A stretch of 64,000 nucleotides of DNA from NCBI GenBank assembly GCA_964445575.1, contig CAYULB010000007.1, positions 3,039-67,038 on the forward strand, written 5' to 3'. The stretch is from an uncultured Eubacteriales bacterium. Its GTDB lineage: Bacteria > Acidobacteriota > Aminicenantia > Aminicenantales > Aminicenantaceae. Made by a program: the position numbers and the translations under genes. The notes beneath the pieces were generated by a model that was given only the letters and a program-made list of their open reading frames with translations, was not told the origin of the DNA and ran no database searches. Positions 1-18,231 of the stretch are shown here, in pieces. How positions within the stretch are numbered: the first letter of the stretch is position 1; each line of letters opens with the position of its first letter.

Positions 1-3000
1 GTTCATAAAGATATTGACAAAGCTACGGAAAAGGCAACTTCTCTTATAAAAGCAGCCATAAACAGAGTCGCACTTCAGCAGCCTCTCAAACCAGTAAAAG
101 TCGATGTCAATCCAGACACCTTAATTGTCGGTGCAGGAATCGCCGGAATCCAGGCTGCACTAGAGATTGCTGAATCAGGAAGCCGAGTCTATCTGGTGGA
201 AAAAGAATCCACTATCGGTGGCAAAATGGCGAAATTTGATAAAACTTTCCCCACTCTTGATTGCTCTGCTTGCATTCTGACTCCCAAGATGGTTTCTGTA
301 GCTCAAAACAAGAACATTGAACTCCTCAGCTTCAGCGAAGTGGAAGAAGTGGAAGGAGCCATCGGTAATTTTAAAGTCAAAGTAAGAAAGAAAGCCCGCT
401 TCGTCAAAGATGACTGTACTTCCTGTGGAGAATGTTCTGAAGTATGTCCCATAAGGATCCCCAATCCTTTTGAAGAAAATCAGTCATCCCGTTCAGCTAT
501 CTATAAAACTTTCCCTCAGGCAATTCCCAATACCTATGTGATCGATAAAGCCGACCGCCCTCCCTGCCGGGAGACCTGCCCCATTGACCAGGAAGCAGCT
601 GGCTACGTAACGCTCATCTCAAAGGGGCGCTATGAAGAAGCTGCCAGTCTTATAAGGAAGCAGAACGCACTTCCCAGTGTTTGCGGACGTGTCTGCTACC
701 ATCCCTGTGAATCAGAATGCAGCCGAAAATTTGTGGATAATGCCGTTTCCATAAAAAATCTCAAGAGATTTGCTATTGACTGGGAGCTTGAAAATAAGGG
801 AGCTCCCCAACCTCCCAAGACAGAAGAAAAAAAAGAACAGAAGATAGCCATAGTAGGTTCCGGCCCCTCAGGTCTTGTTTGCGGACATGATTTAGCTCTC
901 AAGGGTTATCAGGTCACCATCTATGAACAGCTTCCCGTGGAAGGAGGAATGCTCTCGGTCGGCATCCCTGAATACAGGCTTCCCAAAAAAATCCTTAAAA
1001 GGGATATCGATTACATAAAAAAACTGGGAGTTGAGATAAAGACAAATAAAGCCCTTGGAAAAGACTTTGATATAGACAGCCTCAAAAAAGACGGATTTGA
1101 TGCCATTTATGTTGCTACCGGGGCTCACAGCAGTAGAAAAATGAATATTCTTGGTGAAGATGAATATGAAGGTGTCTATCACGGAGTTGATTTCCTTAGA
1201 AACATAAATCTCAACAAACCTCAGCCTGTAGGAAAAAATGTCGCCATAATCGGAGGAGGAAACACAGCTATAGATGCTGCCCGAACCGCTCTGCGCATGG
1301 ATGCGGATGAAGTGACCATCCTTTACAGAAGGACCAGAAAAGAGATGCCCGCTGAAGAAGCTGAAATCAAAGCTGCTGAGGAAGAAGGAATCAAAGTCAA
1401 GTATTTAACAGCTCCTGTGGAAGTCTTGGGAAAATCCAAAAAAGTTACCGGAATGAAATGCATCAAAATGGAACTTGGAGAACCTGACTCAAGCGGCCGA
1501 AGGAGACCCATCCCTATAGAAGGCAGCGAGTATGAGCTGGATATTGATACCATCATCATCGCGGTCAGCCAGTCTCCAGAAATTGATTATGCAGAAAAAG
1601 AAGAACATCTCAAACTCACCAAATGGAACACCATTGTAGTCAATTCCGAATCCATGGAAACCGAAATTGAAGGAGTCTTTGCAGGAGGAGATGTGGTTCG
1701 GGGGCCAGATGCCGTCATCACCGCTATGGGAGACGGTAAGCGGGCTGCTGAATCAATTGATAAGTACCTTAAGGGAGAACCTTTAAAGGACTTCAAAACA
1801 AGAAGATGTCCTCCACTGCCAGAAAGAAATGAAAACGACCGTCCCCATCCGTATTCACCTCCTTTTAAAGATATCGCCAAACAAGAGCGGACTAAAATGA
1901 AGGAACTTGACCCCGAACAGCGCAAAAAATCATTTGATGAGGTCGAACTGGGATACTCTGAAGAGGAGGTTAAAAAAGAAGCTTCCCGATGCTTAAACTG
2001 CGGATTATGCGTAGAGTGTCATGTTTGCGAAACAGTTTGTGAGGCAAATGCCATAAATCATGATATGAAAGACGAAATCAAAGAGATCAATGTTGGCCAG
2101 GTCCTTGTTACGACAGGTTTCCAGACCATCAATTCCGATGCCCTGACTCCCTATGGTTATGGAGAGTTTGAAAATGTCTACACCAGCCTGGAGTTCGAAA
2201 GAATTGTAAGTTCCACAGGTCCCACTCAGGGAAAAATTGTGATGAAAAACGGCCAAGAGCCCCAATCCATTGGAATCATACACTGTGTGGGCTCTAGAGA
2301 CATAAACTTCCATCCTTACTGCTCGCGTGTCTGCTGCATGTATGCTCTGAAATTCGCCCATCTGATAAAGGATCGAACCAATGCTGAAGTCTATCAATTC
2401 TACATTGATATGCGCTCCTTTGGAAAAGGATATGAAGAATTTTATTCCAGGATACTGGATGAAGATGTCAATATTATTCGGGGAAAAGTATCTGAAGTGA
2501 TTCGCTCCAGCCACAGTCATAACGGTGATTCACCCTTGATAATCAAATGCGAAGATACTCTGATAAAAAAATACCGAGCAATTCCTGTAGATATGGTCAT
2601 CGTCTGCAATGCCATGGAACCCCAATCTGACGTAGAAAATATAGGAAGACTTTTCTCCATCAGTCAAAGCCCGGATGGCTTCTTTTTAGAGAAACATCCA
2701 AAACTTGACCCGACCAGCACATCTACAGACGGAGTCTATATTGCCGGGTGCTGTCAAGGACCTAAAGATATTCCGGATACTGTAGCCCAAGCAAATTCAG
2801 CTGCAGCGAGAATCCTTTCCAATATTTCTAAAGGCGAAATTGAACTTGAACCCATACAAGCTGAAATCGACCCAGAGCTCTGCTCAGGCTGCAGACTCTG
2901 TAACAATCTGTGTCCCTACGGAGCGATAACTTTTGACGAAGAAAAAAATATATCTGTAGTAAACGAAGCACTCTGCAAAGGATGTGGAACTTGTGTGGCA

Positions 3001-3084
3001 GCCTGTCCTTCCTCAGCTTCTTCGGCCAACCATTTCTCTGATACCCAGATCATTGCAGAAATAGAGGGCAATTTACGAGAATAG
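1..3084 (+). CDS. HdrA-like flavoprotein with an inserted GltD/NfnB-like NAD(P)H-binding module ('HdrL'-type); 5' end lies outside the window
   Basis: Frame 1 is open from nt 1. The N-terminus has the dinucleotide-binding motif (IVGAGIAGIQAALEIAESG) and the HdrA core motifs (FPTLDCSACILTPKM; CVGSRD...YCSRVCCMYALK). An internal GltD-type segment follows (ALPSVCGRVCYHPCESECSR; IAIVGSGPSGL; GVFAGGDVVRG). The C-terminus carries 2x[4Fe-4S] ferredoxin motifs (CSGCRLCNNLCP, CKGCGTCVAACP). Confidence 0.85.
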   Translation, partial: VHKDIDKATEKATSLIKAAINRVALQQPLKPVKVDVNPDTLIVGAGIAGIQAALEIAESGSRVYLVEKESTIGGKMAKFDKTFPTLDCSACILTPKMVSVAQNKNIELLSFSEVEEVEGAIGNFKVKVRKKARFVKDDCTSCGECSEVCPIRIPNPFEENQSSRSAIYKTFPQAIPNTYVIDKADRPPCRETCPIDQEAAGYVTLISKGRYEEAASLIRKQNALPSVCGRVCYHPCESECSRKFVDNAVSIKNLKRFAIDWELENKGAPQPPKTEEKKEQKIAIVGSGPSGLVCGHDLALKGYQVTIYEQLPVEGGMLSVGIPEYRLPKKILKRDIDYIKKLGVEIKTNKALGKDFDIDSLKKDGFDAIYVATGAHSSRKMNILGEDEYEGVYHGVDFLRNINLNKPQPVGKNVAIIGGGNTAIDAARTALRMDADEVTILYRRTRKEMPAEEAEIKAAEEEGIKVKYLTAPVEVLGKSKKVTGMKCIKMELGEPDSSGRRRPIPIEGSEYELDIDTIIIAVSQSPEIDYAEKEEHLKLTKWNTIVVNSESMETEIEGVFAGGDVVRGPDAVITAMGDGKRAAESIDKYLKGEPLKDFKTRRCPPLPERNENDRPHPYSPPFKDIAKQERTKMKELDPEQRKKSFDEVELGYSEEEVKKEASRCLNCGLCVECHVCETVCEANAINHDMKDEIKEINVGQVLVTTGFQTINSDALTPYGYGEFENVYTSLEFERIVSSTGPTQGKIVMKNGQEPQSIGIIHCVGSRDINFHPYCSRVCCMYALKFAHLIKDRTNAEVYQFYIDMRSFGKGYEEFYSRILDEDVNIIRGKVSEVIRSSHSHNGDSPLIIKCEDTLIKKYRAIPVDMVIVCNAMEPQSDVENIGRLFSISQSPDGFFLEKHPKLDPTSTSTDGVYIAGCCQGPKDIPDTVAQANSAAARILSNISKGEIELEPIQAEIDPELCSGCRLCNNLCPYGAITFDEEKNISVVNEALCKGCGTCVAACPSSASSANHFSDTQIIAEIEGNLRE

Positions 3085-6027: not shown

Positions 6028-6228
6028 ATGGCTAACGGAACTGTTAAATGGTTCAATAGCAGCAAAGGTTACGGCTTCATTGAGCAGGAAGACGGACCTG
6101 ATGTGTTTGTTCATCATTCAGCGATCAACGCATCGGGTTTCAAGTCGCTCAAAGAAGGCGATAAGGTGACCTTTGAGATCGAACAGGGTCCCAAAGGGCC
6201 TGCGGCGAAAAACGTAACCGTAGTCTAG
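6028..6228 (+). CDS. Cold-shock protein, CspA family
   Basis: [18 protein letters not shown] (RNP1) and VFVHHSAI (RNP2). GGAGA RBS about 8 nt upstream of ATG 6028. The longer ORF starting at 5998 is probably an over-extension. Confidence 0.92.
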
Positions 6229-6250
6229 CTCGAAACCATTAAAACACTAA

Positions 6251-6288
6251 AAGGGCGTTCTCTTCATCGAGAATGCCCTTTTTATTTA
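6251..6288 (+). terminator. Rho-independent terminator downstream of csp
   Basis: 12-bp stem AAGGGCGTTCTC / GAGAATGCCCTT (one G:U pair), 6-nt loop, followed by a T-run. Confidence 0.8.
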
Positions 6289-6510: not shown

Positions 6511-6522
6511 AAAGGTAAAAAA

Positions 6523-6642
6523 ATGGCGATTAAAATAGAAAATTCAAAGAGGGAAAATGTTCAAGACATTGTTCTTGAAAAAATCTTGTATATCGCTGAA
6601 AATAAGTTGATAATGAAAACATCGCCATTTTTTTATGAATAG
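6523..6642 (+). CDS. Possible 39-aa small ORF (MAIKIENSKRENVQDIVLEKILYIAENKLIMKTSPFFYE) lying largely inside repeat copy A
   Basis: ATG with an AAAGG 7 nt upstream. The equivalent frame in repeat copy B has no start codon and an early TAG, so this is weakly supported. Confidence 0.15.
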   Translation: MAIKIENSKRENVQDIVLEKILYIAENKLIMKTSPFFYE

Positions 6643-6650
6643 GTCAGGTT
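6541..6650 (+). repeat. Copy A of a ~110-bp imperfect direct repeat (partner at 10141-10250), with promoter-like blocks and a vestigial ATG-AAT-AGG-TCA-GGT-TAG
   Basis: An ungapped hand alignment at an offset of exactly 3600 bp gives about 87/110 identities. Conserved blocks are TTCTTGAAAAAATCTTGT, GCTGAAAATAA and ATTTTTTTATGAAT. Confidence 0.75.
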
Positions 6651-6674
6651 AGTTTAGTTTAAAATAAATTCAAT

Positions 6675-9600
6675 ATGCGTTTTATAAGTGACCTTCACAT
6701 CCATTCTCACTTCTCTCGGGCTACCAGCAAGCAGCTAGTGCCGGAATTTATTGACTACTGGGCAAGACTCAAAGGGATCTCTGCAGTGGGCACAGGGGAC
6801 TTCACTCATCCTGGCTGGCTCAACGAACTTAAAGAAAAATTAGAACCAGTAGAAGATGGTCTGTTTGAACTTAAAAAAAAATTCAAAAAAAACCTAGACA
6901 TCCCTAAGCCAAAAAATCTTTGTTCTGAAGTGAGATTTATCTTGTCCACAGAGATAAGCAGTATTTACAAAAAAAATAGTAAAGTCAGAAAAGTGCACAA
7001 TGTCATTTTGTCTCCAGACTTTGCCACAGCTGAAAAAATTCAGAAATCCCTTCTGAAGATCGGTGGAAATATTACATCTGATGGGAGGCCGATTTTAGGT
7101 CTTGATTCCAAAGATCTGCTGGAAATGACCCTAGAGGCTTCTGATAAGACATTCTTTATCCCCGCTCATATTTGGACTCCATGGTTTTCTGTGCTCGGTT
7201 CAAAATCAGGATTTGATTCTATAGAAGAGTGTTTTGAAGACCTAACCCCATTAATATCTGCGGTTGAGACAGGCCTTTCTACAGATGCTCCCATGCACTG
7301 GATGTGTACGTTTCTGGACAGATTCAATTTGGTATCAAATTCCGATGCACACTCTTCTGAAAAACTGGGCCGCAATGCCAACATTTTTAACACAGAACTG
7401 ACATACTCACACATCATCAAAGCCCTGGAATCAGGGGACCCAGATAAATTTAAAGGAACCATAGACCTATTCCCTCAAGAAGGAAAATACCACTATGACG
7501 GACACAGAAAATGCGGAATAAGATGGAACCCAGTTCAAACCCTTCAAAACAAAAAAATCTGTCCTCAATGTGGGAAAAAAGTCACCATAGGGGTGATGCA
7601 TAGAGTGGTGGAACTATCAGACCGGGAAGATCTTGATGAACGTCCCAACAAGCTTCCTTTCATCTCCATAATCCCCTTAAAAGAAATTCTATCTGAAATA
7701 ACAGGGGTCGGCTCCACATCAAAAGCAGTTGATTCAGAATATTTTTCCCTGATCCGGAGCTGCGGTCCTGAACTGCACATCCTTCTTGACCTTCCTCCTG
7801 AAGAGCTTAATAAAAGAGGATTTGAAGTTTTAGCCGAAGCTGTGAAAAGAATGCGCAACAGGCAGGTTATTATCCAAGAAGGTTTTGATGGTGAGTATGG
7901 AAGAATTCGCGTCTTTAATCACAAGAAATCATTCACCAGGGAAAGTCAAAAAAATCTTTTTCACAAAAAAACAGAAGCCCCTTCTGTTGTGCCGAAACGA
8001 AAAATCATTAATTTTGACCTCAAGGATTATAGAAAGCTTCAGAAAAAAATTCCCCCCGCCCCTTCTCAACTTTTACTTGAAGCAAAGGAAAACCAGACAG
8101 AAAAACAAAAAGAACTGCTGTCAGTGAAACATCTTAATACAGAGCAAAAACAAGCTGTGGAGCATAACAAAGGTCCGGCAGCTGTCATTGCTGGCCCAGG
8201 AACCGGTAAAACACATACTCTCTGCTGCAGAATGGCCTATATAATCCAAAGGAATAAAACACCTCCTGGAAATATCCTTGCTGTCACCTTTACAAATAAG
8301 GCCGCAGGAGAGATGAAGAACAGACTTAATGACATGGTTGGCCACAAATCAAAACTCACTGGAATCCGTGTGGCAACCTTTCATGCCTTTGGATATGAAA
8401 TACTCAAAAAACACTGTGAACTTCTGAACAGAAGTAAAAACTTTTCAATTATAAGCGAGGAAGAGAGAACTGACTTTCTTCAAGATATATTCGGCTTCAA
8501 ACATCAAAAAGCAACCGCGACCGCCAAAGTTATTAAAGAGGCCAAACAAAACCTGAGAATGCTCGAAGAGGCCAAAGAGTCTCCTCTTTGTTCTCTTCTT
8601 ACATCATATGAAGAAAAACTCATAGAATCTGATCTGTTTGATATTGACGACTGTATATATCAGCCCCTGTTTCTTTTCTCCAACTTTCCTTCCCTGTTAA
8701 TTCAATACAGAAAAAGTATTTCCTGCATGCTCGTAGATGAGTTCCAGGATATAAACTGTGTTCAATATGAGATAATGAGAAAAATTATGCCTGAACAGGA
8801 TGCTTCTCTTTATATCATTGGAGATCCGGACCAATCCATATACGGATTTCGGGGAGCAGGCCCCCGTTTTCTGAATGATTTTCTAAAAGACTATCCCAAA
8901 GCATCCATCTACAGACTAAAACAGAGTTATAGGTGCTCCGATCTTATTCTCAGAGCTTCAGGAAAACTAGTCCAAAAAAATGAGTTTGAAAGAGACCATT
9001 TGAAAGGTCTTTTCAGGGGAGTGAAAGTCAACCTCGTTTCAAACGCAACTGAGAAGAGTGAAGCAGAATTTGTAGCCCGCAGAATAGAGGATATTATCGG
9101 AGGAGTGCGTTTTTTTTCAATTGATTCTGAAATAAGCGAAGGTGAAGAAAAAGAAGGGATAAACAGTTTTTCTGATTTTGCAGTATTGTGCCGAACAAAA
9201 GAACAAATGAAACCCATTGAAAAAGCTTTTAACGACCACAGCATCCCCTTTCAAAAAGTAGGGGAAACTCCTTTTTTCCGTGAAGAGCCCCTAAAATCAG
9301 TCCTAAATGTCTATAGGCTCAGCCTTCATCAAGAAAATGCTTTTCTCAAACAAAGCTTAATCAGAAAAAAAACCATTAAGGCTGGATATATCTCTGGTCT
9401 TCCTGATCTAACAGAAAACAAGCCGGTCAGAGAAGGACTTACCAGCATCATCAACCATTTCTTTTCCCGAGAAAAAAAGTCGGCCGAGGATTCTATCAAG
9501 AAACTTTTGGATCTGGCCGAAGATTATAAAAACAATACAGAAGAATTTTTAAAGCACATCTCTCTAGGTTCAGGTGCTGACACCCATGATTCTTCTCTTG

Positions 9601-9929
9601 AAAGCATAGCTTTAATGACACTTCATGCTGCCAAAGGGCTGGAATTCACCTGTGTTTTTATCACAGGATGTGAAGAGGGCATTCTCCCGTACTCTCTTTT
9701 CCCGGGGCATAAAGCAGACCGAGAAGAAGAAAGACGAATTTTGTATGTAGGCATGACCCGAGCTAAAAAACATCTCTATTTAACTTACGCAAAAAGGAGA
9801 TTTATTCAAGGAAAATGCTTTGAGTTAAAAAGAAGCAGTTTCTTGGATGATATTGAAGCCGCTTTTATAAAAAGCACGGTTTCTCCATTCCAACGAAAAA
9901 AAACTCCCCAGATGAAGCTATTCTCTTAA
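6675..9929 (+). CDS. Fusion protein: N-terminal EndoQ-like PHP-domain endonuclease with a Zn-ribbon, and a C-terminal UvrD/PcrA-type SF1 DNA helicase
   Basis: Residues 1 to ~415 carry DLHIHSHFSRATS, GTGDFTHPGW, NSDAHS, CPQCGKK and GFDGEYGRIRVF, which matches the EndoQ layout as I remember it. Residues ~490-1084 carry helicase motifs I (AGPGTGKT), Ia (TFTNKAAGEM), II (VDEFQD), III (GDPDQSIYGFRGA) and VI (YVGMTRAKKHLYL). Confidence 0.85.
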   Translation: MRFISDLHIHSHFSRATSKQLVPEFIDYWARLKGISAVGTGDFTHPGWLNELKEKLEPVEDGLFELKKKFKKNLDIPKPKNLCSEVRFILSTEISSIYKKNSKVRKVHNVILSPDFATAEKIQKSLLKIGGNITSDGRPILGLDSKDLLEMTLEASDKTFFIPAHIWTPWFSVLGSKSGFDSIEECFEDLTPLISAVETGLSTDAPMHWMCTFLDRFNLVSNSDAHSSEKLGRNANIFNTELTYSHIIKALESGDPDKFKGTIDLFPQEGKYHYDGHRKCGIRWNPVQTLQNKKICPQCGKKVTIGVMHRVVELSDREDLDERPNKLPFISIIPLKEILSEITGVGSTSKAVDSEYFSLIRSCGPELHILLDLPPEELNKRGFEVLAEAVKRMRNRQVIIQEGFDGEYGRIRVFNHKKSFTRESQKNLFHKKTEAPSVVPKRKIINFDLKDYRKLQKKIPPAPSQLLLEAKENQTEKQKELLSVKHLNTEQKQAVEHNKGPAAVIAGPGTGKTHTLCCRMAYIIQRNKTPPGNILAVTFTNKAAGEMKNRLNDMVGHKSKLTGIRVATFHAFGYEILKKHCELLNRSKNFSIISEEERTDFLQDIFGFKHQKATATAKVIKEAKQNLRMLEEAKESPLCSLLTSYEEKLIESDLFDIDDCIYQPLFLFSNFPSLLIQYRKSISCMLVDEFQDINCVQYEIMRKIMPEQDASLYIIGDPDQSIYGFRGAGPRFLNDFLKDYPKASIYRLKQSYRCSDLILRASGKLVQKNEFERDHLKGLFRGVKVNLVSNATEKSEAEFVARRIEDIIGGVRFFSIDSEISEGEEKEGINSFSDFAVLCRTKEQMKPIEKAFNDHSIPFQKVGETPFFREEPLKSVLNVYRLSLHQENAFLKQSLIRKKTIKAGYISGLPDLTENKPVREGLTSIINHFFSREKKSAEDSIKKLLDLAEDYKNNTEEFLKHISLGSGADTHDSSLESIALMTLHAAKGLEFTCVFITGCEEGILPYSLFPGHKADREEERRILYVGMTRAKKHLYLTYAKRRFIQGKCFELKRSSFLDDIEAAFIKSTVSPFQRKKTPQMKLFS

Positions 9930-10050: not shown

Positions 10051-10140
10051 CTCATAATGGTGTTGAAGATTCTCACAAATCTTATTCAAAGTTTGACAAC
10101 CTTTCTCAAGAGTGCTAAAAAGCTTTCAAGTTAGGTAAAA

Positions 10141-10250
10141 AATACAAACAAGAAAAATGCTTAGGTCATTATTCTTGAAAAAATCTTGTGCATTGCTGAA
10201 AATAAAATAATAATAAACTCATCACAATTTTTTTATGAATGGATCAGGTA
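10141..10250 (+). repeat. Copy B of the ~110-bp direct repeat; contains the start codon and first five codons of the methyltransferase gene
   Basis: See copy A. Here the ATG at 10235 opens a 312-aa ORF. Confidence 0.75.
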
Positions 10251-11173
10251 AATTGAAGATACCCCTAAACAAGCACTTTTTTTTCACCAGAACAGAATGT
10301 CCTGTCTGTTCAAGCCCCAATATCAAACCATTCAGAAAAAGAAATGTTTCCTATAAAGACTTTAATCACAACCAGATTAAAATCACTGACAGTGACTATG
10401 GAAAAATTTGGGACCTAAGCCGATGCTTTGACTGCACCCATATCTTTGCAAATCCCTGTCCCACTTCAGAATACATTCAATCCCTATACAAAAAAATAAA
10501 AGATCCTTCCTATGAAGAAGAGACAGCGGGACGCAAAAAAAATTTTTTTCCTATCCTTTGGAACACCCATGAAATCCTTCCAGGACGGGGGAATATATTT
10601 GATGTGGGAGCTGCCACAGGAATTTTCTTAAACCTGGCCCAAAAATATGGGTGGAATCCTGATGGTATTGAAGCCAGCACATGGGCGGTTGATAGAGCAA
10701 GAGAAAAATACAATCTTAATATTCAAAAGGGCACCTTTGAATCAGCCGAACTTAAAAAGGATCACTACCAAGCTGTCACTATGATCGATTTTATTGAACA
10801 CATTCCCCATCCCTTTAAAGCTGTCCTCAAAGCACAAGAAATTTTAAGACCTGGAGGGCTGCTGTGCCTGGTCACCCCAAACCAGCACAGTCTAGCTGCT
10901 AAATTATCAGGCAGAAAATGGTGGCATTTCAGGCCAGCACACATTCACTATTTCACAAAAAAAAGCCTTCAGATTCTTATGCAGAATGCAGGATTTAAAA
11001 CAGTCAAAATAAGAAGTTACTACTGGACTTTTTCTGCTCACTATCTTATCTCAAGGTTTAACATTCTGAGCTTTTTAATAGACAATCACATTCTTTCTTC
11101 TTTTTTCAAAAAAATTCCGATAAAATTGGCTCTAGGTGATTCAATAGAGCTTTATGCTCAAAAAATAGATTGA
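10235..11173 (+). CDS. Class I SAM-dependent methyltransferase with an N-terminal Cys4 zinc ribbon
   Basis: CPVCSS...CFDCTH, then the SAM motif I region FDVGAATGIF and the post-I/II pattern (VTMIDFIEHIPHP, LRPGGLLCLVTPN). Confidence 0.8.
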   Translation: MNGSGKLKIPLNKHFFFTRTECPVCSSPNIKPFRKRNVSYKDFNHNQIKITDSDYGKIWDLSRCFDCTHIFANPCPTSEYIQSLYKKIKDPSYEEETAGRKKNFFPILWNTHEILPGRGNIFDVGAATGIFLNLAQKYGWNPDGIEASTWAVDRAREKYNLNIQKGTFESAELKKDHYQAVTMIDFIEHIPHPFKAVLKAQEILRPGGLLCLVTPNQHSLAAKLSGRKWWHFRPAHIHYFTKKSLQILMQNAGFKTVKIRSYYWTFSAHYLISRFNILSFLIDNHILSSFFKKIPIKLALGDSIELYAQKID

Positions 11174-12249: not shown

Positions 12250-12897
12250 ATGCAAACAGCAGAAGTGATATTAAAACTTTTACTGGCCACTGCTTTAGGG
12301 GGACTCATCGGCTTGGAAAGAGAATCCAGCCGAAAACCAGCAGGGCTTAGAACGAATATCCTTATATGTCTTGGCTCAACCATGGTGATGATCTTGTCAG
12401 GGCTTCTTCTTGAGGGGAAAGAGACATCCATGGGAGACCTGACTCGGATAGCCGCTGGAGTCATAACAGGGATCGGTTTTATTGGGGCAGGCACCATAAT
12501 CCAGTCTAAAGGTATGGTCATCGGGCTCACCACTGCGGCTGGAATCTGGGCTGTCTCTGTGCTGGGACTTGTTATTGGATCTGGGTATTATCTCTTTGCT
12601 GTTATTTTCACGGTTATTGTCATCCTAAATCTTTTTATTCTAGGAAAAATTGAAAAAGAGCACATAAAGAAAGGAACATACCGCTACACTGTCAAATCTG
12701 AATCTTCCAAAAAAATATTACTGGATATTAAGAAAATCGCTCTTCATGAAGGCATAAAATTCAAAGAAATTTCCCATAAAAAAGAAGGAGCCCTTACCAT
12801 CATCTCCTTTGCCTTTGAGGCCCCCGATGAAAACGAACAATGTTTCTACAAGAGCCTTACAGATCTAAAAGAAATCAAAGAACTTAATATTGATTAA
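12250..12897 (+). CDS. MgtC/SapB family membrane protein
   Basis: LLLATALGGLIGLERE signature, 4-5 TM helices and a soluble C-terminal domain. ATG 12250 is preferred over GTG 12247 because of the GGGA RBS. Confidence 0.85.
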   Translation: MQTAEVILKLLLATALGGLIGLERESSRKPAGLRTNILICLGSTMVMILSGLLLEGKETSMGDLTRIAAGVITGIGFIGAGTIIQSKGMVIGLTTAAGIWAVSVLGLVIGSGYYLFAVIFTVIVILNLFILGKIEKEHIKKGTYRYTVKSESSKKILLDIKKIALHEGIKFKEISHKKEGALTIISFAFEAPDENEQCFYKSLTDLKEIKELNID

Positions 12898-13489
12898 AAA
12901 AAAGCTTCTTCTCGCAACCACTAATCAAGGAAAAGTAAATGAGATACAAAACTTTCTCTCATCCTTTCCTTTAGAAATCATCTCTATTAAGGATATAAGT
13001 TCTGCCTACTTGTTCATAGAGACCGGAAAAACTTTTATGGAAAATGCAGCGGGAAAAGCTCTTTTTTACAGTCGAATATGGCCGGGATTAACTCTGGGAG
13101 AAGATTCAGGGCTTGAAATAGAAAAATTGGCTGGAGCTCCCGGAGTATTATCCGCTAGGTATTCAGGAAACCATGCCACAGATGAAAAGAATATAGAAAA
13201 AGTACTGCATCAATTAAGAGGAGTTCCTGAAGAAAAAAGAAGAGCAAGATTTGTATGCTGTATGGTGTTAGCTGAAAAGGATAAGATAATACATAAAATC
13301 AAGGAACACACCTCAGGATATATCCTTACCCAAAAAAAAGGAAATCATGGGTTTGGTTATGATCCCATATTTTTTTGCTCTCCCTTAAACAAGACCTTTG
13401 CCCAGCTCACCCCTGAAGAAAAAAATTCAGTCAGCCACAGGGGAAAAGCTTTAAAAAAATTAAAGGCTTTTCTCCAGCAATATCTCTAA
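12890..13489 (+). CDS. rdgB: Non-canonical purine NTP pyrophosphatase (dITP/XTP pyrophosphatase), RdgB/HAM1 family
   Basis: LLLATTNQGKVNEI, EDSGLEI, FGYDPIF and SHRGKA motifs. TTG start overlapping the mgtC stop. Confidence 0.88.
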   Translation: MIKKKLLLATTNQGKVNEIQNFLSSFPLEIISIKDISSAYLFIETGKTFMENAAGKALFYSRIWPGLTLGEDSGLEIEKLAGAPGVLSARYSGNHATDEKNIEKVLHQLRGVPEEKRRARFVCCMVLAEKDKIIHKIKEHTSGYILTQKKGNHGFGYDPIFFCSPLNKTFAQLTPEEKNSVSHRGKALKKLKAFLQQYL

Positions 13490-14003: not shown

Positions 14004-14888
14004 TTAAGACCGAGGATGACTTTTTTTATAGACTTCCAGAAGTCTCTTCAAATCGAGATGAGTGTACTTTTGAGTGGTGGCCAGGCTTTCATGCCCTAAA
14101 AGTTCCTGTATCACCCGCAGGTCTGCCCCTCGGCTCAGCAAATGGGAAGCAAATGAATGACGCAGGGAATGAGGACTGAGCTTTCTTTTGATTGCTGATT
14201 TTTTGAAATATTCATCCACGATTCGCTGGACCGATCTGGGAGTCAGCCTCCCGCCTCTGTAATTTAAAAACACGGGGTTTTTATCAATATCCCCTTTGTG
14301 AATAAGAAATCTCTTTTGTAGGTACTGTCTGAGTTTTTTCTCAGCCACAGTTCCAAAAGGAACTATGCGTTCTTTTTTTCCTTTGCCACGGACCCGGACT
14401 AGTCTCTCCTCAAAGTTTACATCGACAAGGTCTATTCCCACTAATTCACTGACCCTCAGGCCAGTGGCATAAAGCAACTCAAGCATAGCTCTATCTCTCA
14501 TATCCAGCGGCTTTTCAGAGTCAGGAAGGTCTAGAAACAAGGCCATCTCTTCTTCAGACAAAAAAGAAGGGACATTTTTTTCCTGCTTGGGAGTACTGAC
14601 CATCTTAGCAGGATTTTCTTTTATCCAATTCCTGTGAACACAGTACTGATAAAATGAGCGTACCGCAGCCAATTTGCGCGCCGCACTCGATTTTTTTATA
14701 TTATTTTGATACAGAAAAGCTAAGAAGCTTCTGATAAGAATATTATCCGCGTGCTTGTATTTTATTTTTTTGGAATGGATAAAAGATAAATACTGCTCAA
14801 TATCCCGTCTGTAAGCTGATACGGTATGCTTGGAGAAATTTTTTTCATACTTAAAATAATCTAGAAACTGCTCTAACTCTTTAATCAC
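14004..14888 (-). CDS. xerC: Tyrosine site-specific recombinase XerC/XerD
   Basis: N-terminal SAM-like domain, ATGLRVSEL, HSLRHSFASHL and LGHESLATTQKYTH catalytic motifs. The dprA-topA-xerC order is common. Confidence 0.88.
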   Translation of the reverse strand: MIKELEQFLDYFKYEKNFSKHTVSAYRRDIEQYLSFIHSKKIKYKHADNILIRSFLAFLYQNNIKKSSAARKLAAVRSFYQYCVHRNWIKENPAKMVSTPKQEKNVPSFLSEEEMALFLDLPDSEKPLDMRDRAMLELLYATGLRVSELVGIDLVDVNFEERLVRVRGKGKKERIVPFGTVAEKKLRQYLQKRFLIHKGDIDKNPVFLNYRGGRLTPRSVQRIVDEYFKKSAIKRKLSPHSLRHSFASHLLSRGADLRVIQELLGHESLATTQKYTHLDLKRLLEVYKKSHPRS

Positions 14889-17137
14889 TCTGAGTCAGCC
14901 TTGTTATCCCTGCTTTTCTCCCATATTTTATCTTTATCAATAAACTTCTTATAACCACATCCGTCCTGACTACAATATAAATAGGGTTTTCCTTTAATCA
15001 AATTTTTTTTGAATATTATTTTTCTTCCGCATTCCGGACAAGACCGGGAGACCGGCTCATCCCATGAAGCAAATTTACATTTAGGAAAATTGCTGCACCC
15101 ATAAAAAATTTTACCCTTTCTTGTTTTTTTTATCACCAAAGAACCACTGCATTCTGGACAATCAATCCCGGTATCCTTTTTCTCCTTTTTAATATATTTG
15201 CATTTTGGATAATTGGAACAAGCAATAAAAGAACCGTAGCGGCCTTGACGCACCACCATCTGGGAACCGCATTGGGGACATTTCTCATCCACTGGCTTGG
15301 CTTCCTTTTTATTAAGGCTTTTTTTAAAACGACATTCAGGAAACCCTGAACAGGCTTTGAATTTTCCATATCTTCCCGACTTTATAACCAGGGGTCGTCC
15401 GCATTCTGGACAATTTTCTTCAGAAGGAATGCCTTTGGTTTTCACTCCTTCTTTCCTGCTTGCTCTCTCCAAGTCTTTTTCAAGAAGCTCATTATAAGAT
15501 TTTATATACTCCAGCCAGCTCTTTTCGCCCTCGCTAATAAGGTCGAGGGCCTCTTCAAGCTGAGCAGTAAACTCATACTGCATTAAATCAGAAAAATTTT
15601 TAATCAAATAACTATTAACAAAAATTCCAACCTCAGTAGGGATAAACCTTCCTTTCCTCTTCAACACATAATCTCTGTCTTGGATGGTCGAGATAATGGG
15701 AGCGTAAGTACTGGGACGGCCTATTCCTCTGAACTCTAGCTCCTTAACGAGTGTTCCCTCTGAATAACGAGGAGGAGGTTGTGTGAATTTTTGTTCGCTG
15801 TCAAGTTTTTCCAGTTTAAGCTTTTCACCCTTTTCTGCTGACGGGAGTCTGACATCTTTGCTTTTTATATTGGGATAGGCAGCAAGAAATCCTTTAAATT
15901 TCATGACCTCTCCTTTAGCTCGAAAATGATAGCTCCCGGCTTTTATTTCAAACACAGTCTCTTCCACTTTGGCAACGCTCATTTGAGAAGCAATGAATCG
16001 ATCCCATATCATTGAATAGATCTTGAGCTCATCTTTGTTCAAATACTGTTTTACTTTTTCTGGAGGAAGGTCAAAACAAGTGGGCCGTATAGCTTCATGT
16101 GCGTCTTGTGCTTTTTTCTTATTTTTAAACCTTCGGGGAGTTTTTGAGAGGTAATCCTTTGAATATTTTCTTTCTATATAGGCTCTTCCCCCTTTAATAG
16201 CTTGTTCTGAAATCCGAACAGAATCGGTTCTCATGTAAGTGATGAGTCCCACCAATCCTCTCTCCCCTATTTCCAAACCTTCATAGAGTTTTTGAGCAAT
16301 CATCATGGTCTTTTTTACAGGAAACTTGTTTATACGGAAACTGTCCTGCTGAAGGGTGCTTGTTATGTAGGGAGGATAGGGATTCTTTCTTTTTAACTTG
16401 ACTTTCAAGTCTTGGAGATAAAAGTGAGCTTTCTTCAGATCAGATAAAATCTTCTCAGCTGTCTGGCCGTCTTGAATCTTTGCTTTTTTTTCCTTTATTT
16501 TTACCAGGTCTGCGGTAAATGCAGGAGGTGATGAAGCTTTGAGGTGAGCGGTTATATTCCAGAATTCTTTAGGAACAAAATCATTTATTTCTTTCTCTCG
16601 TTCACAAATCAACCGAAGCGTTATGGACTGCACTCTTCCTGCACTCAAGCCTTTCCCTATCTTCTTCCATAAAAGGGGACTTATCCTGTAACCCACTAAC
16701 CTATCCAGAATCCTTCTTGCCTGTTGAGCTTTTATTTTATCTTCATCCAAAGAAAGGACTTTCTTAAAAGCATCTTCCACTGCATTCTTTGTTATTTCAT
16801 GGAAAAGGACCCGGTGGATGTTGCTGTTGTGGTCTTTTAAAACCTCTGATAAATGCCAGCAAATGGCCTCTCCTTCTCTATCCGGATCAGCAGCTAATAA
16901 TATGGAGTCATTCTTTTCAGCTTCCTTCTTAAGTTGAGAGACAACCTTTTTCTTTTCTGGGATTATTAGGAATTCGGGAGTAAAGTCTTTTTCCATATCA
17001 ACTCCCATCCTGTTTTTAGGGAGGTCTCGGATATGTCCCAGGGAAGCCCTGACTTCATAATCCGAACCTAGATATCGACTTAAGGTCTTTGCTTTTGCTG
17101 GAGATTCAACTATGACTAATTTTTTATCCATTACCAT
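14885..17137 (-). CDS. topA: DNA topoisomerase I
   Basis: TOPRIM LVIVESPAKAKT, DPDREGE, the active-site region YITYMRTDS, and four C-terminal CxxC...CxxC zinc ribbons. The start could instead be ATG 17131 (TAATG overlap). Confidence 0.95.
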   Translation of the reverse strand: MVMDKKLVIVESPAKAKTLSRYLGSDYEVRASLGHIRDLPKNRMGVDMEKDFTPEFLIIPEKKKVVSQLKKEAEKNDSILLAADPDREGEAICWHLSEVLKDHNSNIHRVLFHEITKNAVEDAFKKVLSLDEDKIKAQQARRILDRLVGYRISPLLWKKIGKGLSAGRVQSITLRLICEREKEINDFVPKEFWNITAHLKASSPPAFTADLVKIKEKKAKIQDGQTAEKILSDLKKAHFYLQDLKVKLKRKNPYPPYITSTLQQDSFRINKFPVKKTMMIAQKLYEGLEIGERGLVGLITYMRTDSVRISEQAIKGGRAYIERKYSKDYLSKTPRRFKNKKKAQDAHEAIRPTCFDLPPEKVKQYLNKDELKIYSMIWDRFIASQMSVAKVEETVFEIKAGSYHFRAKGEVMKFKGFLAAYPNIKSKDVRLPSAEKGEKLKLEKLDSEQKFTQPPPRYSEGTLVKELEFRGIGRPSTYAPIISTIQDRDYVLKRKGRFIPTEVGIFVNSYLIKNFSDLMQYEFTAQLEEALDLISEGEKSWLEYIKSYNELLEKDLERASRKEGVKTKGIPSEENCPECGRPLVIKSGRYGKFKACSGFPECRFKKSLNKKEAKPVDEKCPQCGSQMVVRQGRYGSFIACSNYPKCKYIKKEKKDTGIDCPECSGSLVIKKTRKGKIFYGCSNFPKCKFASWDEPVSRSCPECGRKIIFKKNLIKGKPYLYCSQDGCGYKKFIDKDKIWEKSRDNKADSE

Positions 17138-18231
17138 TTCCTCTGAAAAAATTTACCTGGACTTTGAGTTATCAATCCCTTGAGTTCTAGTTTCAAAAGA
17201 ACTGATAATACTTCGGATACACTCTTGCCCGTTTTTTTGACTATAAAATCTACATGAGTTAGAGAATCATCCCTGAGATTCTTGATGATATCTCTTTCAA
17301 GAGAATCCAATTTAATTTTTTCTTTTCTCAGGGCTGAAGGCTCAGGGATCATATTTTCTTGGACATAAGGGGGCAATTCCTCTATCACGTCCTCCCATTT
17401 TTCAACAAGCTTGGCTCCATTTTTTATTAACCAGTTGGTTCCCTTGCTCAAAGGAGAAGTAATGTTCCCCGGCACAGCCATGACCTCTCTATTCTGTTCC
17501 AAAGCAAGCTTGGCTGATATGAGTGAACCGCTCCTCTCAGTTGCTTCAGTCACTATTACAGCCAAACTCAACCCACTGATAATCCTATTCCTTAATGGAA
17601 AGTGGAATCCCAGCGGCTTTGACTTCAGAGGGTATTCTGTTATTACCAATCCGGATTCAGTCATCTTTTTAAAAAGCCCTTTGTTGTCTCTGGGATAAAT
17701 GAAATCCAGCCCAGAGCCCAATACAGCCACAGTATGTCCTCCTTTCAAAGCTCCCCAGTGAGCTGCAGAGTCGATTCCAACAGCCATCCCGCTGACGATC
17801 ACAATCCCACGGGAAGCTAACTCAAATGCCAGTTTTTCAGCTACGGCTCTTCCGTAAGGGGACGACCTTCGAGCCCCTACTATCGAGACGGCAGGGACTT
17901 TGAGTAAATCTAAATTCCCTACACAATAGAGGACGTAAGGTGGATCAAAAATTTCTCTTAAACATTCAGGATATTTTTCATCCTCTACGGTTAGGACTGT
18001 ATATCCCTTTTTATTTATTCTGTCAAGTTCCCTTAAAGCTCTTTCTAATGTTCGGGGAGCCTTTATGGAATCAATGGTCTCTTTTTTGAGGTTTAAACCA
18101 TCAAAATCATTCTTATTGGCTTTGAATATCTCTTTAACATTAGAGAATCTTTGAAAAATCTTCTTCGCAGAGCCTAAGTCTTCAGCAAATAAAAGATTAA
18201 AAGCTATCCAATATTTAAGATTTTCTTCCAA
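17131..18231 (-). CDS. dprA: DNA-processing protein DprA (Smf)
   Basis: Rossmann-like core (VSIVGARRSSPYG, VSGMAVGIDSAAH, GSGLDFIYP) plus a C-terminal winged-helix-like tail. Confidence 0.9.
   Translation of the reverse strand: MEENLKYWIAFNLLFAEDLGSAKKIFQRFSNVKEIFKANKNDFDGLNLKKETIDSIKAPRTLERALRELDRINKKGYTVLTVEDEKYPECLREIFDPPYVLYCVGNLDLLKVPAVSIVGARRSSPYGRAVAEKLAFELASRGIVIVSGMAVGIDSAAHWGALKGGHTVAVLGSGLDFIYPRDNKGLFKKMTESGLVITEYPLKSKPLGFHFPLRNRIISGLSLAVIVTEATERSGSLISAKLALEQNREVMAVPGNITSPLSKGTNWLIKNGAKLVEKWEDVIEELPPYVQENMIPEPSALRKEKIKLDSLERDIIKNLRDDSLTHVDFIVKKTGKSVSEVLSVLLKLELKGLITQSPGKFFQRKW

Follow-up and report, generated by a model that had tools for sequence, protein, structure and literature searches.

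An EndoQ-family nuclease module and a UvrD-like helicase in one bacterial polypeptide: a widespread architecture with a proposed role in repairing deaminated DNA

Could a single bacterial polypeptide nick DNA at a deaminated base and then unwind the nicked strand? The question is raised by a gene found in 64,000 nucleotides (nt) of contig CAYULB010000007.1 (positions 3,039 to 67,038, forward strand; assembly GCA_964445575.1), from an uncultured bacterium placed in the Aminicenantaceae. This whole stretch is called the window below, and coordinates refer to it. From 6675 to 9929 on the + strand, a complete open reading frame (ORF) of 1084 codons runs without internal stop. A first-pass annotation, made from the sequence without database searches, had read it as one 1084-amino-acid (aa) polypeptide, fusing an endonuclease Q (EndoQ)-like nuclease to a UvrD-type helicase in a nick-and-unwind module for deaminated DNA. 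The anatomy of this proposal stood up to analysis: an EndoQ module is followed by a linker, a UvrD-like helicase and a putative clamp-binding tail, and full-length homologues exist at 36-72% identity. The mechanism is a matter of interpretation, for which nick-and-unwind is the best-supported reading. We consider it fairly probable that the protein acts as a single-chain, sliding-clamp-tethered nick-and-unwind (alternative-excision) repair enzyme of the bacterial chromosome, for deoxyuridine (dU), deoxyinosine (dI) and apurinic/apyrimidinic (AP) lesions. What supports it is the identity of the EndoQ and helicase parts, the conservation of their residues, the recurrence of the fusion, its clamp motifs and its housekeeping context.

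The identity of the N-terminal half was examined by profile, sequence and structure comparisons. When the N-terminal 430 residues were scanned against NCBIfam, TIGR00375 was the sole match, covering model positions 3-374 of 374 (E 7e-53, 180 bits). Among all PDB sequences, phmmer matched this half only to the EndoQ of P. furiosus (PfuEndoQ; 5zb8, 7k30-7k33), with residues 5-413 aligned end to end on residues 5-382 of the 5zb8/7k30 chain (E 3.9e-56, 194 bits). Foldseek comparison of an AlphaFold2 model of the protein with 5zb8 gave a TM-score of 0.83, normalised by target length, with an rmsd of 3.6 A and 33% identity. A generic PHP or a Pol-X PHP identity was ruled out, as no such Pfam or NCBIfam match was found at E<=0.01. 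The sequence blocks that the first-pass annotation had quoted are all present: DLHIHSHFSRATS at aa 6-18, GTGDFTHPGW at 39-48, NSDAHS at 222-227, CPQCGKK at 296-302 and GFDGEYGRIRVF at 403-414. The module comprises a PHP catalytic domain (aa 1-266, positions 6675-7472), a Zn-binding domain (aa 267-333, 7473-7673) and the EndoQ C-terminal helical domain (aa 334-414, 7674-7916), which ends in GFDGEYGRIRVF and is aligned up to PfuEndoQ residue 382.

EndoQ cuts directly 5′ of dU, dI, deoxyxanthosine (dX) and AP sites, leaving a 3′-OH and a lesion-bearing 5′-phosphate, with a sharp bend in the DNA (PMC4357722, PMC5961232, PMC8307549). The roles of the metal-ligand, base-pocket, Trp and zinc residues of PfuEndoQ are known from mutagenesis and structures (PMC5961232, PMC8307549). 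These residues were placed on the phmmer alignment, and their conservation was counted in a family alignment of 77 sequences reaching down to 36% identity. No metal-binding residue is missing: PfuEndoQ His8, His10, Glu76, His84, His139, Asp193 and His195 correspond to H8, H10, E93, H108, H165, D224 and H226. These ligands are invariant in 72-77 of the 77 sequences, and the shortfalls are alignment gaps (in 5 sequences for H8/H10, in one sequence for E93 and H108), not substitutions. His139, Gly169 and Ser171, which in PfuEndoQ keep out T and A but admit U and hypoxanthine (PMC8307549), map to H165, G200 and S202; Trp144 maps to W170, a candidate wedge residue, and all four positions are identical in 77/77. 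In the zinc site, Cys249, Cys252, Cys268 and Cys271 become H277, C280, C296 and C299. The three cysteines are found in every sequence, CPQCG is present, and position 277 is His in 75 sequences and Cys in 2, so that a plausible HC3 zinc site can be predicted. We conclude that the N-terminal half of the protein is, to judge by its residues, a true EndoQ-family module with the catalytic and base-pocket residues all intact.

One homologue, P0094 (1451 aa), carries right after the S202 equivalent an insertion of ∼357 aa that includes a homing-endonuclease domain of LAGLIDADG type (PF14528). It splits the EndoQ module exactly past the GLS base-pocket motif and has the look of an active-site intein, of the kind typical of conserved replication/repair proteins.

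An EndoQ-like module may nevertheless have drifted in specificity, towards AP sites alone, towards ribonucleotides or mismatches, or towards structure-specific nicking, which would make the protein a unit resembling MutH plus UvrD. The specificity could indeed differ from that of archaeal EndoQ, because the TIGR00375 score, 176-180 bits, does not reach the curated equivalog cut-off (326.6); the N-terminal half is a divergent subfamily rather than a TIGR00375 ‘equivalog’. The replacement of the first zinc ligand by His, the extra insertions relative to PfuEndoQ (aa 67-83 and 96-102) and an identity of only 33% with the characterised enzyme are also in favour of drift. Yet the residues that select the base, H165, G200 and S202, and the Trp144 equivalent are precisely those that never vary, and we regard a changed specificity as very unlikely.

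Compared to the archaeal enzymes (PfuEndoQ PF1551, TkoEndoQ TK0887; structures 5zb8 and 7k30-7k33; TIGR00375/COG1379), the module has the same three-domain layout over its full length, the same six or seven metal ligands, the GLS/His pocket, the Trp and the zinc ribbon, and likewise a clamp-interaction motif shortly past the last strand. The archaeal proteins differ in having no ∼600-aa helicase, a Cys as first zinc ligand, and a PCNA-interacting (PIP) box instead of a beta-clamp motif. The window fusion, for its part, has the two small insertions, and its host is a bacterium of mesophile type, not a euryarchaeon. The stand-alone bacterial EndoQ proteins (B. pumilus / B. subtilis; Brevibacillus laterosporus WP_031414379.1) belong to the same family, and the Brevibacillus one bears the annotation ‘endonuclease Q family protein’. 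With 28% identity and 84 bits over 254 aa, the Brevibacillus protein is farther from the N-terminal half than the archaeal enzyme is, and it has four Cys, no helicase and a tail without QxxLF. At this one stand-alone bacterial locus examined, no split pair of EndoQ and helicase genes was found, the only partner being a NUDIX gene. The EndoQ gene (NZ_CP011075.1; 5982-7729 of locus L081) starts 3 nt past the stop of this NUDIX hydrolase, so that in Bacillales EndoQ may share an operon with a function that sanitises the nucleotide pool. The replicon that carries it, of 733 kb and called a ‘plasmid’, has spoIIM, fur, xerD and deoB and looks chromosomal.

The EndoQ module is followed by a K/E-rich linker (aa 415-483, 7917-8123), whose length of ∼70 aa is as the first-pass annotation had given it. 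In this flexible linker, residues 415-438 and 461-481 are predicted to be disordered, with a predicted local distance difference test (pLDDT) score below 50, and a single short helix spans 449-458. INFDLxxY (aa 445-452, 8007-8030), a short motif that forms a helix, is kept in the closer relatives, not family-wide; residue F447 is invariant in a 26-sequence alignment.

That a complete UvrD-type helicase follows the linker was confirmed by Pfam (PF00580, 1.2e-68; PF13361, 9e-45), by relatives in the PDB and by motif alignment, which together define a UvrD/PcrA-like core of superfamily 1A (aa 484-1066, 8124-9872). The closest solved relatives are UvrD of D. radiodurans (DrUvrD), PcrA, E. coli UvrD and Rep (E 1e-74 to 1e-65), together with UvrD1 of M. 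tuberculosis, and the model aligned to DrUvrD 4c30 with a TM-score of 0.73 normalised by target length, all four subdomains 1A/1B/2A/2B being present. The motifs are intact: Q (LNTEQKQAV), I (AGPGTGKT, nt 8193-8213), Ia (TFTNKAA), II (DEFQD), III (GDPDQSIYGFRGA), IV (YR), V (TLHAAKGLEF) and VI (YVGMTRAK). Core motif residues are invariant in 76-77 of the 77 sequences, with DE[FY]QD as the family form of motif II.

Helicase motifs and subdomains are thus common to this protein and to UvrD/PcrA/Rep (4c2u, 1pjr, 2is1, 1uaa), at 27-31% identity, but three features set the fusion apart. First, an insert of ∼14 aa in domain 2A (aa 809-822, GGVRFFSIDSEISE, 9099-9140), of the form GGxxFFSxDS and with low pLDDT, is conserved in the family (G809 76/77, G810 77/77, D817 73/77) and falls in a gap of the alignments with DrUvrD and PcrA, which do not have it. 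Second, the 2B subdomain (about aa 870-970, 9282-9584) is shortened by ∼50-60 aa relative to PcrA or DrUvrD: between aligned blocks, residues 410-459 of the helicase half match residues 408-509 of PcrA, and the region is modelled as a helical bundle (873-964). Third, the C-terminal extension of PcrA/UvrD (PcrA residues about 650-724) is absent and is replaced by the putative clamp-binding tail. The NCBIfam models for PcrA, UvrD and Rep gave 262-368 bits, for equivalog cut-offs of 911 to 1168. Because these scores reach only ∼40% of the cut-offs, the helicase is a separate UvrD-like subfamily, and not the cell's PcrA/UvrD with an added domain.

Two short motifs in the protein bear on where it may act in the cell; both had been overlooked in the first-pass annotation, as had the commonness of the fusion. 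The C-terminal tail, variable and disordered (pLDDT<50), ends in QMKLF-S. Its QMKLF (aa 1079-1083, 9909-9923), one residue ahead of the stop, fits the bacterial clamp-binding consensus, QL[S/D]LF or QxxLF (PMC12309361), and is a putative canonical beta-clamp-binding motif. In the family the consensus is QL[SKED]LF, located at the end or a few residues from it, with Q in 75/77, L or M in 72/77, L in 70/77 and F in 71/77 sequences. The second motif, QKNLF (aa 425-429, 7947-7961), lies in the linker, 11 residues past the EndoQ module. It is of the type Qxx[LM]F, with L in 65/77 and F in 70/77, and it is placed where archaeal EndoQ carries its PIP box. That box binds PCNA with a dissociation constant of 55 nM, PCNA stimulates cleavage, and stand-alone bacterial EndoQ homologues are reported to have beta-clamp motifs in their C-terminal region (PMC4858679). 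Two conserved beta-clamp motifs would be the strongest sequence argument for a role in chromosomal replication or repair over one in defence. Most simply, the fusion would have arisen when a bacterial EndoQ able to bind the clamp was linked to a UvrD-like helicase, which likewise ends in a clamp motif.

Is the fusion a real gene? An error in assembly or sequencing that ran two adjoining genes together would give the same ORF. We found no point in support of such an error, and the distribution of the architecture makes it negligibly probable. In a protein-cluster search, the best 120 clusters, all at E = 0, had 50-72% identity and 81-100% query coverage, with lengths of 1024-1139 aa, the one exception being an intein-bearing cluster of 1451 aa. 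When one genome from each of 185,579 species was scanned, at least 600 stretches matched, of which 599 were confirmed; the same architecture is therefore present in at least 599 species genomes, from more than 12 phyla. A full-length ORF (926-1243 aa) with the same domain order was found in 76 of the best 80 loci. Carriers include closed chromosomes, namely Desulfonema magnum 4be13 (NZ_CP061800.1) and two Caldilineaceae. To go by the titles of their records, the carriers belong to Acidobacteriota/Aminicenantes, Bacteroidota, Spirochaetota, Desulfobacterota/Thermodesulfobacteriota, Chloroflexota, Verrucomicrobiota and Gemmatimonadota, and further to Fibrobacterota, Planctomycetota, Elusimicrobiota, Cloacimonadota, KSB1, Aerophobetes and Melainabacteria. 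An artefact is ruled out by the 76 full-length ORFs from separate assemblies, closed genomes included, and by the more than 120 clusters; the conserved linker motif and tail also speak against it. Recurring as it does in hundreds of independent assemblies, the fusion is, on this comparative evidence, real and ancient.

The weight of the fused form within the EndoQ family was estimated by a HMMER search with the EndoQ half, which yielded 1006 representatives at 50% identity (E<=1e-30). Among the best 150 of these 1006, the part that was looked at, 148 were longer than the EndoQ module, and are fusions or contig-end fragments of fusions. The fused share is hence a lower bound: the fused form makes up at least a large part, and probably a major part, of the whole EndoQ family. 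Database names for it are only ‘UvrD-helicase domain-containing protein’ or ‘TIGR00375 family’. A full-text search, whose reach did not extend to most papers in subscription journals (among them the 2017 paper on B. pumilus EndoQ), found no description of an EndoQ-helicase fusion. We conclude that the fusion is a widespread, experimentally uncharacterised architecture built from two well-known kinds of protein.

How would the two halves work together? UvrD/PcrA motors translocate 3′ to 5′ along a single strand. Classically, their loading site is a nick made by another protein, from which they displace a strand. UvrD is loaded in this way at the nicks of UvrC (in UvrABC) and MutH, and PcrA at the nick of RepD, where it unwinds the nicked plasmid. 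In the mechanism that we favour, the fusion protein would be gathered on DNA via DnaN, as archaeal EndoQ is via PCNA. The EndoQ module would flip out a dU, dI, dX or AP site and cut the phosphodiester bond immediately 5′ of it, giving a 3′-OH and a 5′-phosphate bearing the lesion. Since it is the lesion-bearing 5′ end that must be removed, the tethered helicase would load at the distorted nick on the undamaged strand, along which it would travel 3′ to 5′. It would thereby peel off the lesion-bearing 5′ end, and would also free the tightly product-bound nuclease. A clamp-bound polymerase could then extend the 3′-OH, a 5′ nuclease remove the displaced flap, and ligase seal the nick. For EndoQ repair, a branch that depends on a helicase was put forward as early as 2015 (PMC4357722), and the fusion would be that branch hard-wired in one chain and anchored to DnaN. 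No new principle is involved, as both domains and the logic of a nickase combined with a UvrD-type helicase are already known.

A different use of the helicase would keep the role in chromosomal repair. It might serve as an ATP-driven translocase that scans for lesions, possibly with the clamp behind the fork, or only as a factor for product release, repair then being completed by nick translation by Pol I. PfuEndoQ cleaves single-stranded and double-stranded DNA alike (PMC5961232, PMC8307549) and stays on its nicked product (PMC5961232), which speaks for a scanning or release function. The two clamp motifs suggest proximity to the replisome, and the shortened 2B may alter the way in which the duplex is engaged. 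The sequence gives nothing to separate these functions from strand displacement at the nick; it is the classical loading of UvrD/PcrA relatives at nicks, for strand displacement, that goes against them, and we hold scanning or release to be unlikely.

The combination of a nuclease and a helicase could also be directed against phages or plasmids, by attacking foreign DNA in which non-canonical bases, such as uracil or hypoxanthine, are present. Ppl of Gao et al. 2020 is reportedly a single-protein PHP-ATPase defence nuclease, with a PHP domain at its N-terminus and an ATPase at its C-terminus. ‘Wukong’ and the nuclease-helicase Nhi are other analogues: like the fusion, ‘Wukong’ has an N-terminal PHP nuclease and a C-terminal ATPase in a chain of ∼1000 aa, and such a single-protein defence DNase of ∼1026 aa has been described (bioRxiv 10.1101/2024.12.27.630466). 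An antiviral role was suggested for Bacillus EndoQ (PMC8307549), and the helicase half scores well on the GajB models of PADLOC (3e-84). These GajB matches, however, are generic UvrD-fold similarity, and the N-terminal half (aa 1-479) matched none of the 5027 PADLOC v2 models even at E<=1. Compared by description only, ‘Wukong’ differs in being a non-specific DNase inside type I-C CRISPR loci, whereas the fusion was not found in defence or CRISPR neighbourhoods; this context and the PADLOC outcome speak against kinship between the two. Nor has the EndoQ half any relative in 50,697 phage records (INPHARED) or in 2.9 million viral contigs (IMG/VR), and the only one among 72,556 plasmids is the stand-alone EndoQ of Brevibacillus. 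Architecture and length are stable over many phyla, composition is flat, and the conserved beta-clamp motifs are typical of replication/repair proteins.

The genes around the fusion are also of the housekeeping kind. All-against-all clustering of 886 neighbouring ORFs from 80 related loci revealed no partner gene conserved family-wide, and cas, restriction-modification, integrase and known defence genes were absent from the recurrent neighbours of these loci. The commonest neighbours, in at most 13 of the 80, were dnaN and gyrB, an RdgC-like gene and two further genes of unknown kind, mostly at loci of Desulfobacterales/Thermodesulfobacteriota type; others were tRNA synthetase, dihydrodipicolinate synthase, ATP-binding cassette transporter and similar housekeeping genes. 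Given this context, we find a defence function quite unlikely. At ∼10 loci whose titles give Desulfobacterales, Thermodesulfobacteriota or Deltaproteobacteria, some of these genes form a block upstream of the fusion gene and divergent from it. The block comprises the RdgC-like gene, a gene for an unknown protein of 196 aa, dnaN and gyrB (L033, L037, L053, L065, L066, L068, L078, L080 and others), and it puts the clamp-motif-bearing enzyme beside the clamp gene.

In the window itself, the neighbours are ordinary chromosomal genes: hycI/hypB/hypA, csp, a methyltransferase, a UbiA prenyltransferase, mgtC and rdgB, then a comEA-like gene, xerC, topA, dprA, lipopolysaccharide genes and pheT. The adjacent methyltransferase, which the first-pass annotation had held not to be a DNA methyltransferase, is indeed of Methyltransf_23 type and is followed by the UbiA gene. 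The same annotation had also seen a functional link in rdgB, whose product avoids hypoxanthine and xanthine. This gene (Ham1, E 1e-58; 12890-13489) does lie 3 kb downstream of the fusion, but when all ten window neighbours were compared by tblastn with the 80 related loci, rdgB was found at only one of them, the syntenic nearest relative (L001). Its adjacency is therefore not functional evidence.

Several points weigh against the nick-and-unwind enzyme as we propose it. It is by homology that the protein is assigned its substrate specificity, its helicase polarity and its clamp binding, and the TIGR00375 score short of the equivalog cut-off leaves room for a specificity other than that of archaeal EndoQ. 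In the internal clamp motif, Q is kept in only 46/77 sequences. The helicase half belongs to a distinct subfamily, with a conserved insert foreign to DrUvrD and PcrA and a truncated regulatory 2B domain. The lack of a conserved neighbour deprives the protein of a pathway context. Finally, the AlphaFold2 model, based on 26 homologues, is only moderate (mean pLDDT 73, predicted TM-score 0.52), and the packing of the domains is not reliably readable from it.

AddA, RecB and AdnB also combine a UvrD-like motor with a nuclease in one chain, and were found at Foldseek ranks 27-50. They differ in that their nuclease is a C-terminal PD-(D/E)xK domain and that they act at double-strand ends as hetero-oligomers, whereas the nuclease of the fusion is an N-terminal PHP nickase, lesion-specific by homology.

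Around its ORF, the window gene stands alone, the next ORF beginning 306 nt past its stop. Upstream, a gap of 840 nt that appeared empty contains a CspA-type cold-shock protein gene (about 6028-6228, + strand), behind which a strong terminator-like hairpin of 14 pairs followed by a T run is found (6249-6282, +). This hairpin is predicted to set the fusion gene apart as its own transcription unit. Two direct repeats of 139 nt, spaced by exactly 3600 nt, bracket the gene. The upstream copy (6516-6654, +) has perfect 15-nt terminal inverted repeats and a promoter-like TTGAAA-17-GAAAAT (6575-6603), a sequence present in each copy; the downstream copy (10116-10254, +), 76% identical, lies directly upstream of the start of the methyltransferase ORF and overlaps it. 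In the syntenic relative L001 the repeat is absent, with only a 34-nt partial match in the rdgB-comEA spacer. It may be an element resembling a miniature inverted-repeat transposable element, or a duplicated promoter. A signal of horizontal transfer was rejected, GC content being flat at 0.39-0.42, and an Rfam scan gave no family at gathering score anywhere in the window.

Farther away, just past rdgB and the comEA-like HHH gene, xerC, topA and dprA stand in a row (14004-18231, − strand), a DNA-processing/competence-related cluster that is, as far as tested, unrelated to the fusion. At the other end (196-3084, +), a 962-aa protein with a pyridine-nucleotide-disulphide oxidoreductase domain and several 4Fe-4S domains is followed by a response-regulator/histidine-kinase hybrid and by the hydrogenase maturation genes hycI, hypB and hypA. 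These redox and hydrogenase maturation genes indicate an anaerobic, hydrogen-metabolising host.

What does the fusion mean for EndoQ in general? The literature describes EndoQ as an enzyme mostly of archaea that has ‘only a few’ homologues in bacteria, and what follows incision is unsettled. The presence of the fusion in at least 599 bacterial species contradicts the picture of an essentially archaeal enzyme. To the question of the post-incision step it offers a testable answer, a helicase acting directly at the EndoQ nick, at the clamp. A polypeptide that nicks at dU or dI and then unwinds might also be a useful reagent. We put forward more tentatively, as a serious possibility, that the main bacterial EndoQ, and possibly the most abundant EndoQ of all, is the form fused to a helicase and tethered twice to the clamp. 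This form would then define a pathway for uracil and hypoxanthine that is self-contained and independent of glycosylases (‘nick, unwind, resynthesise’), across many phyla that are mostly anaerobic, among them Bacteroidota, Desulfobacterota, Spirochaetota, Acidobacteriota/Aminicenantes, Chloroflexota and Verrucomicrobiota. If this is true, the fusion makes a Rosetta-stone prediction for the stand-alone EndoQ of archaea and Bacilli, which would hand its nick to a separate helicase of superfamily 1 or 2 at the sliding clamp. Glycosylase-independent incision repair of deaminated bases may be far commoner in bacteria than has been assumed.

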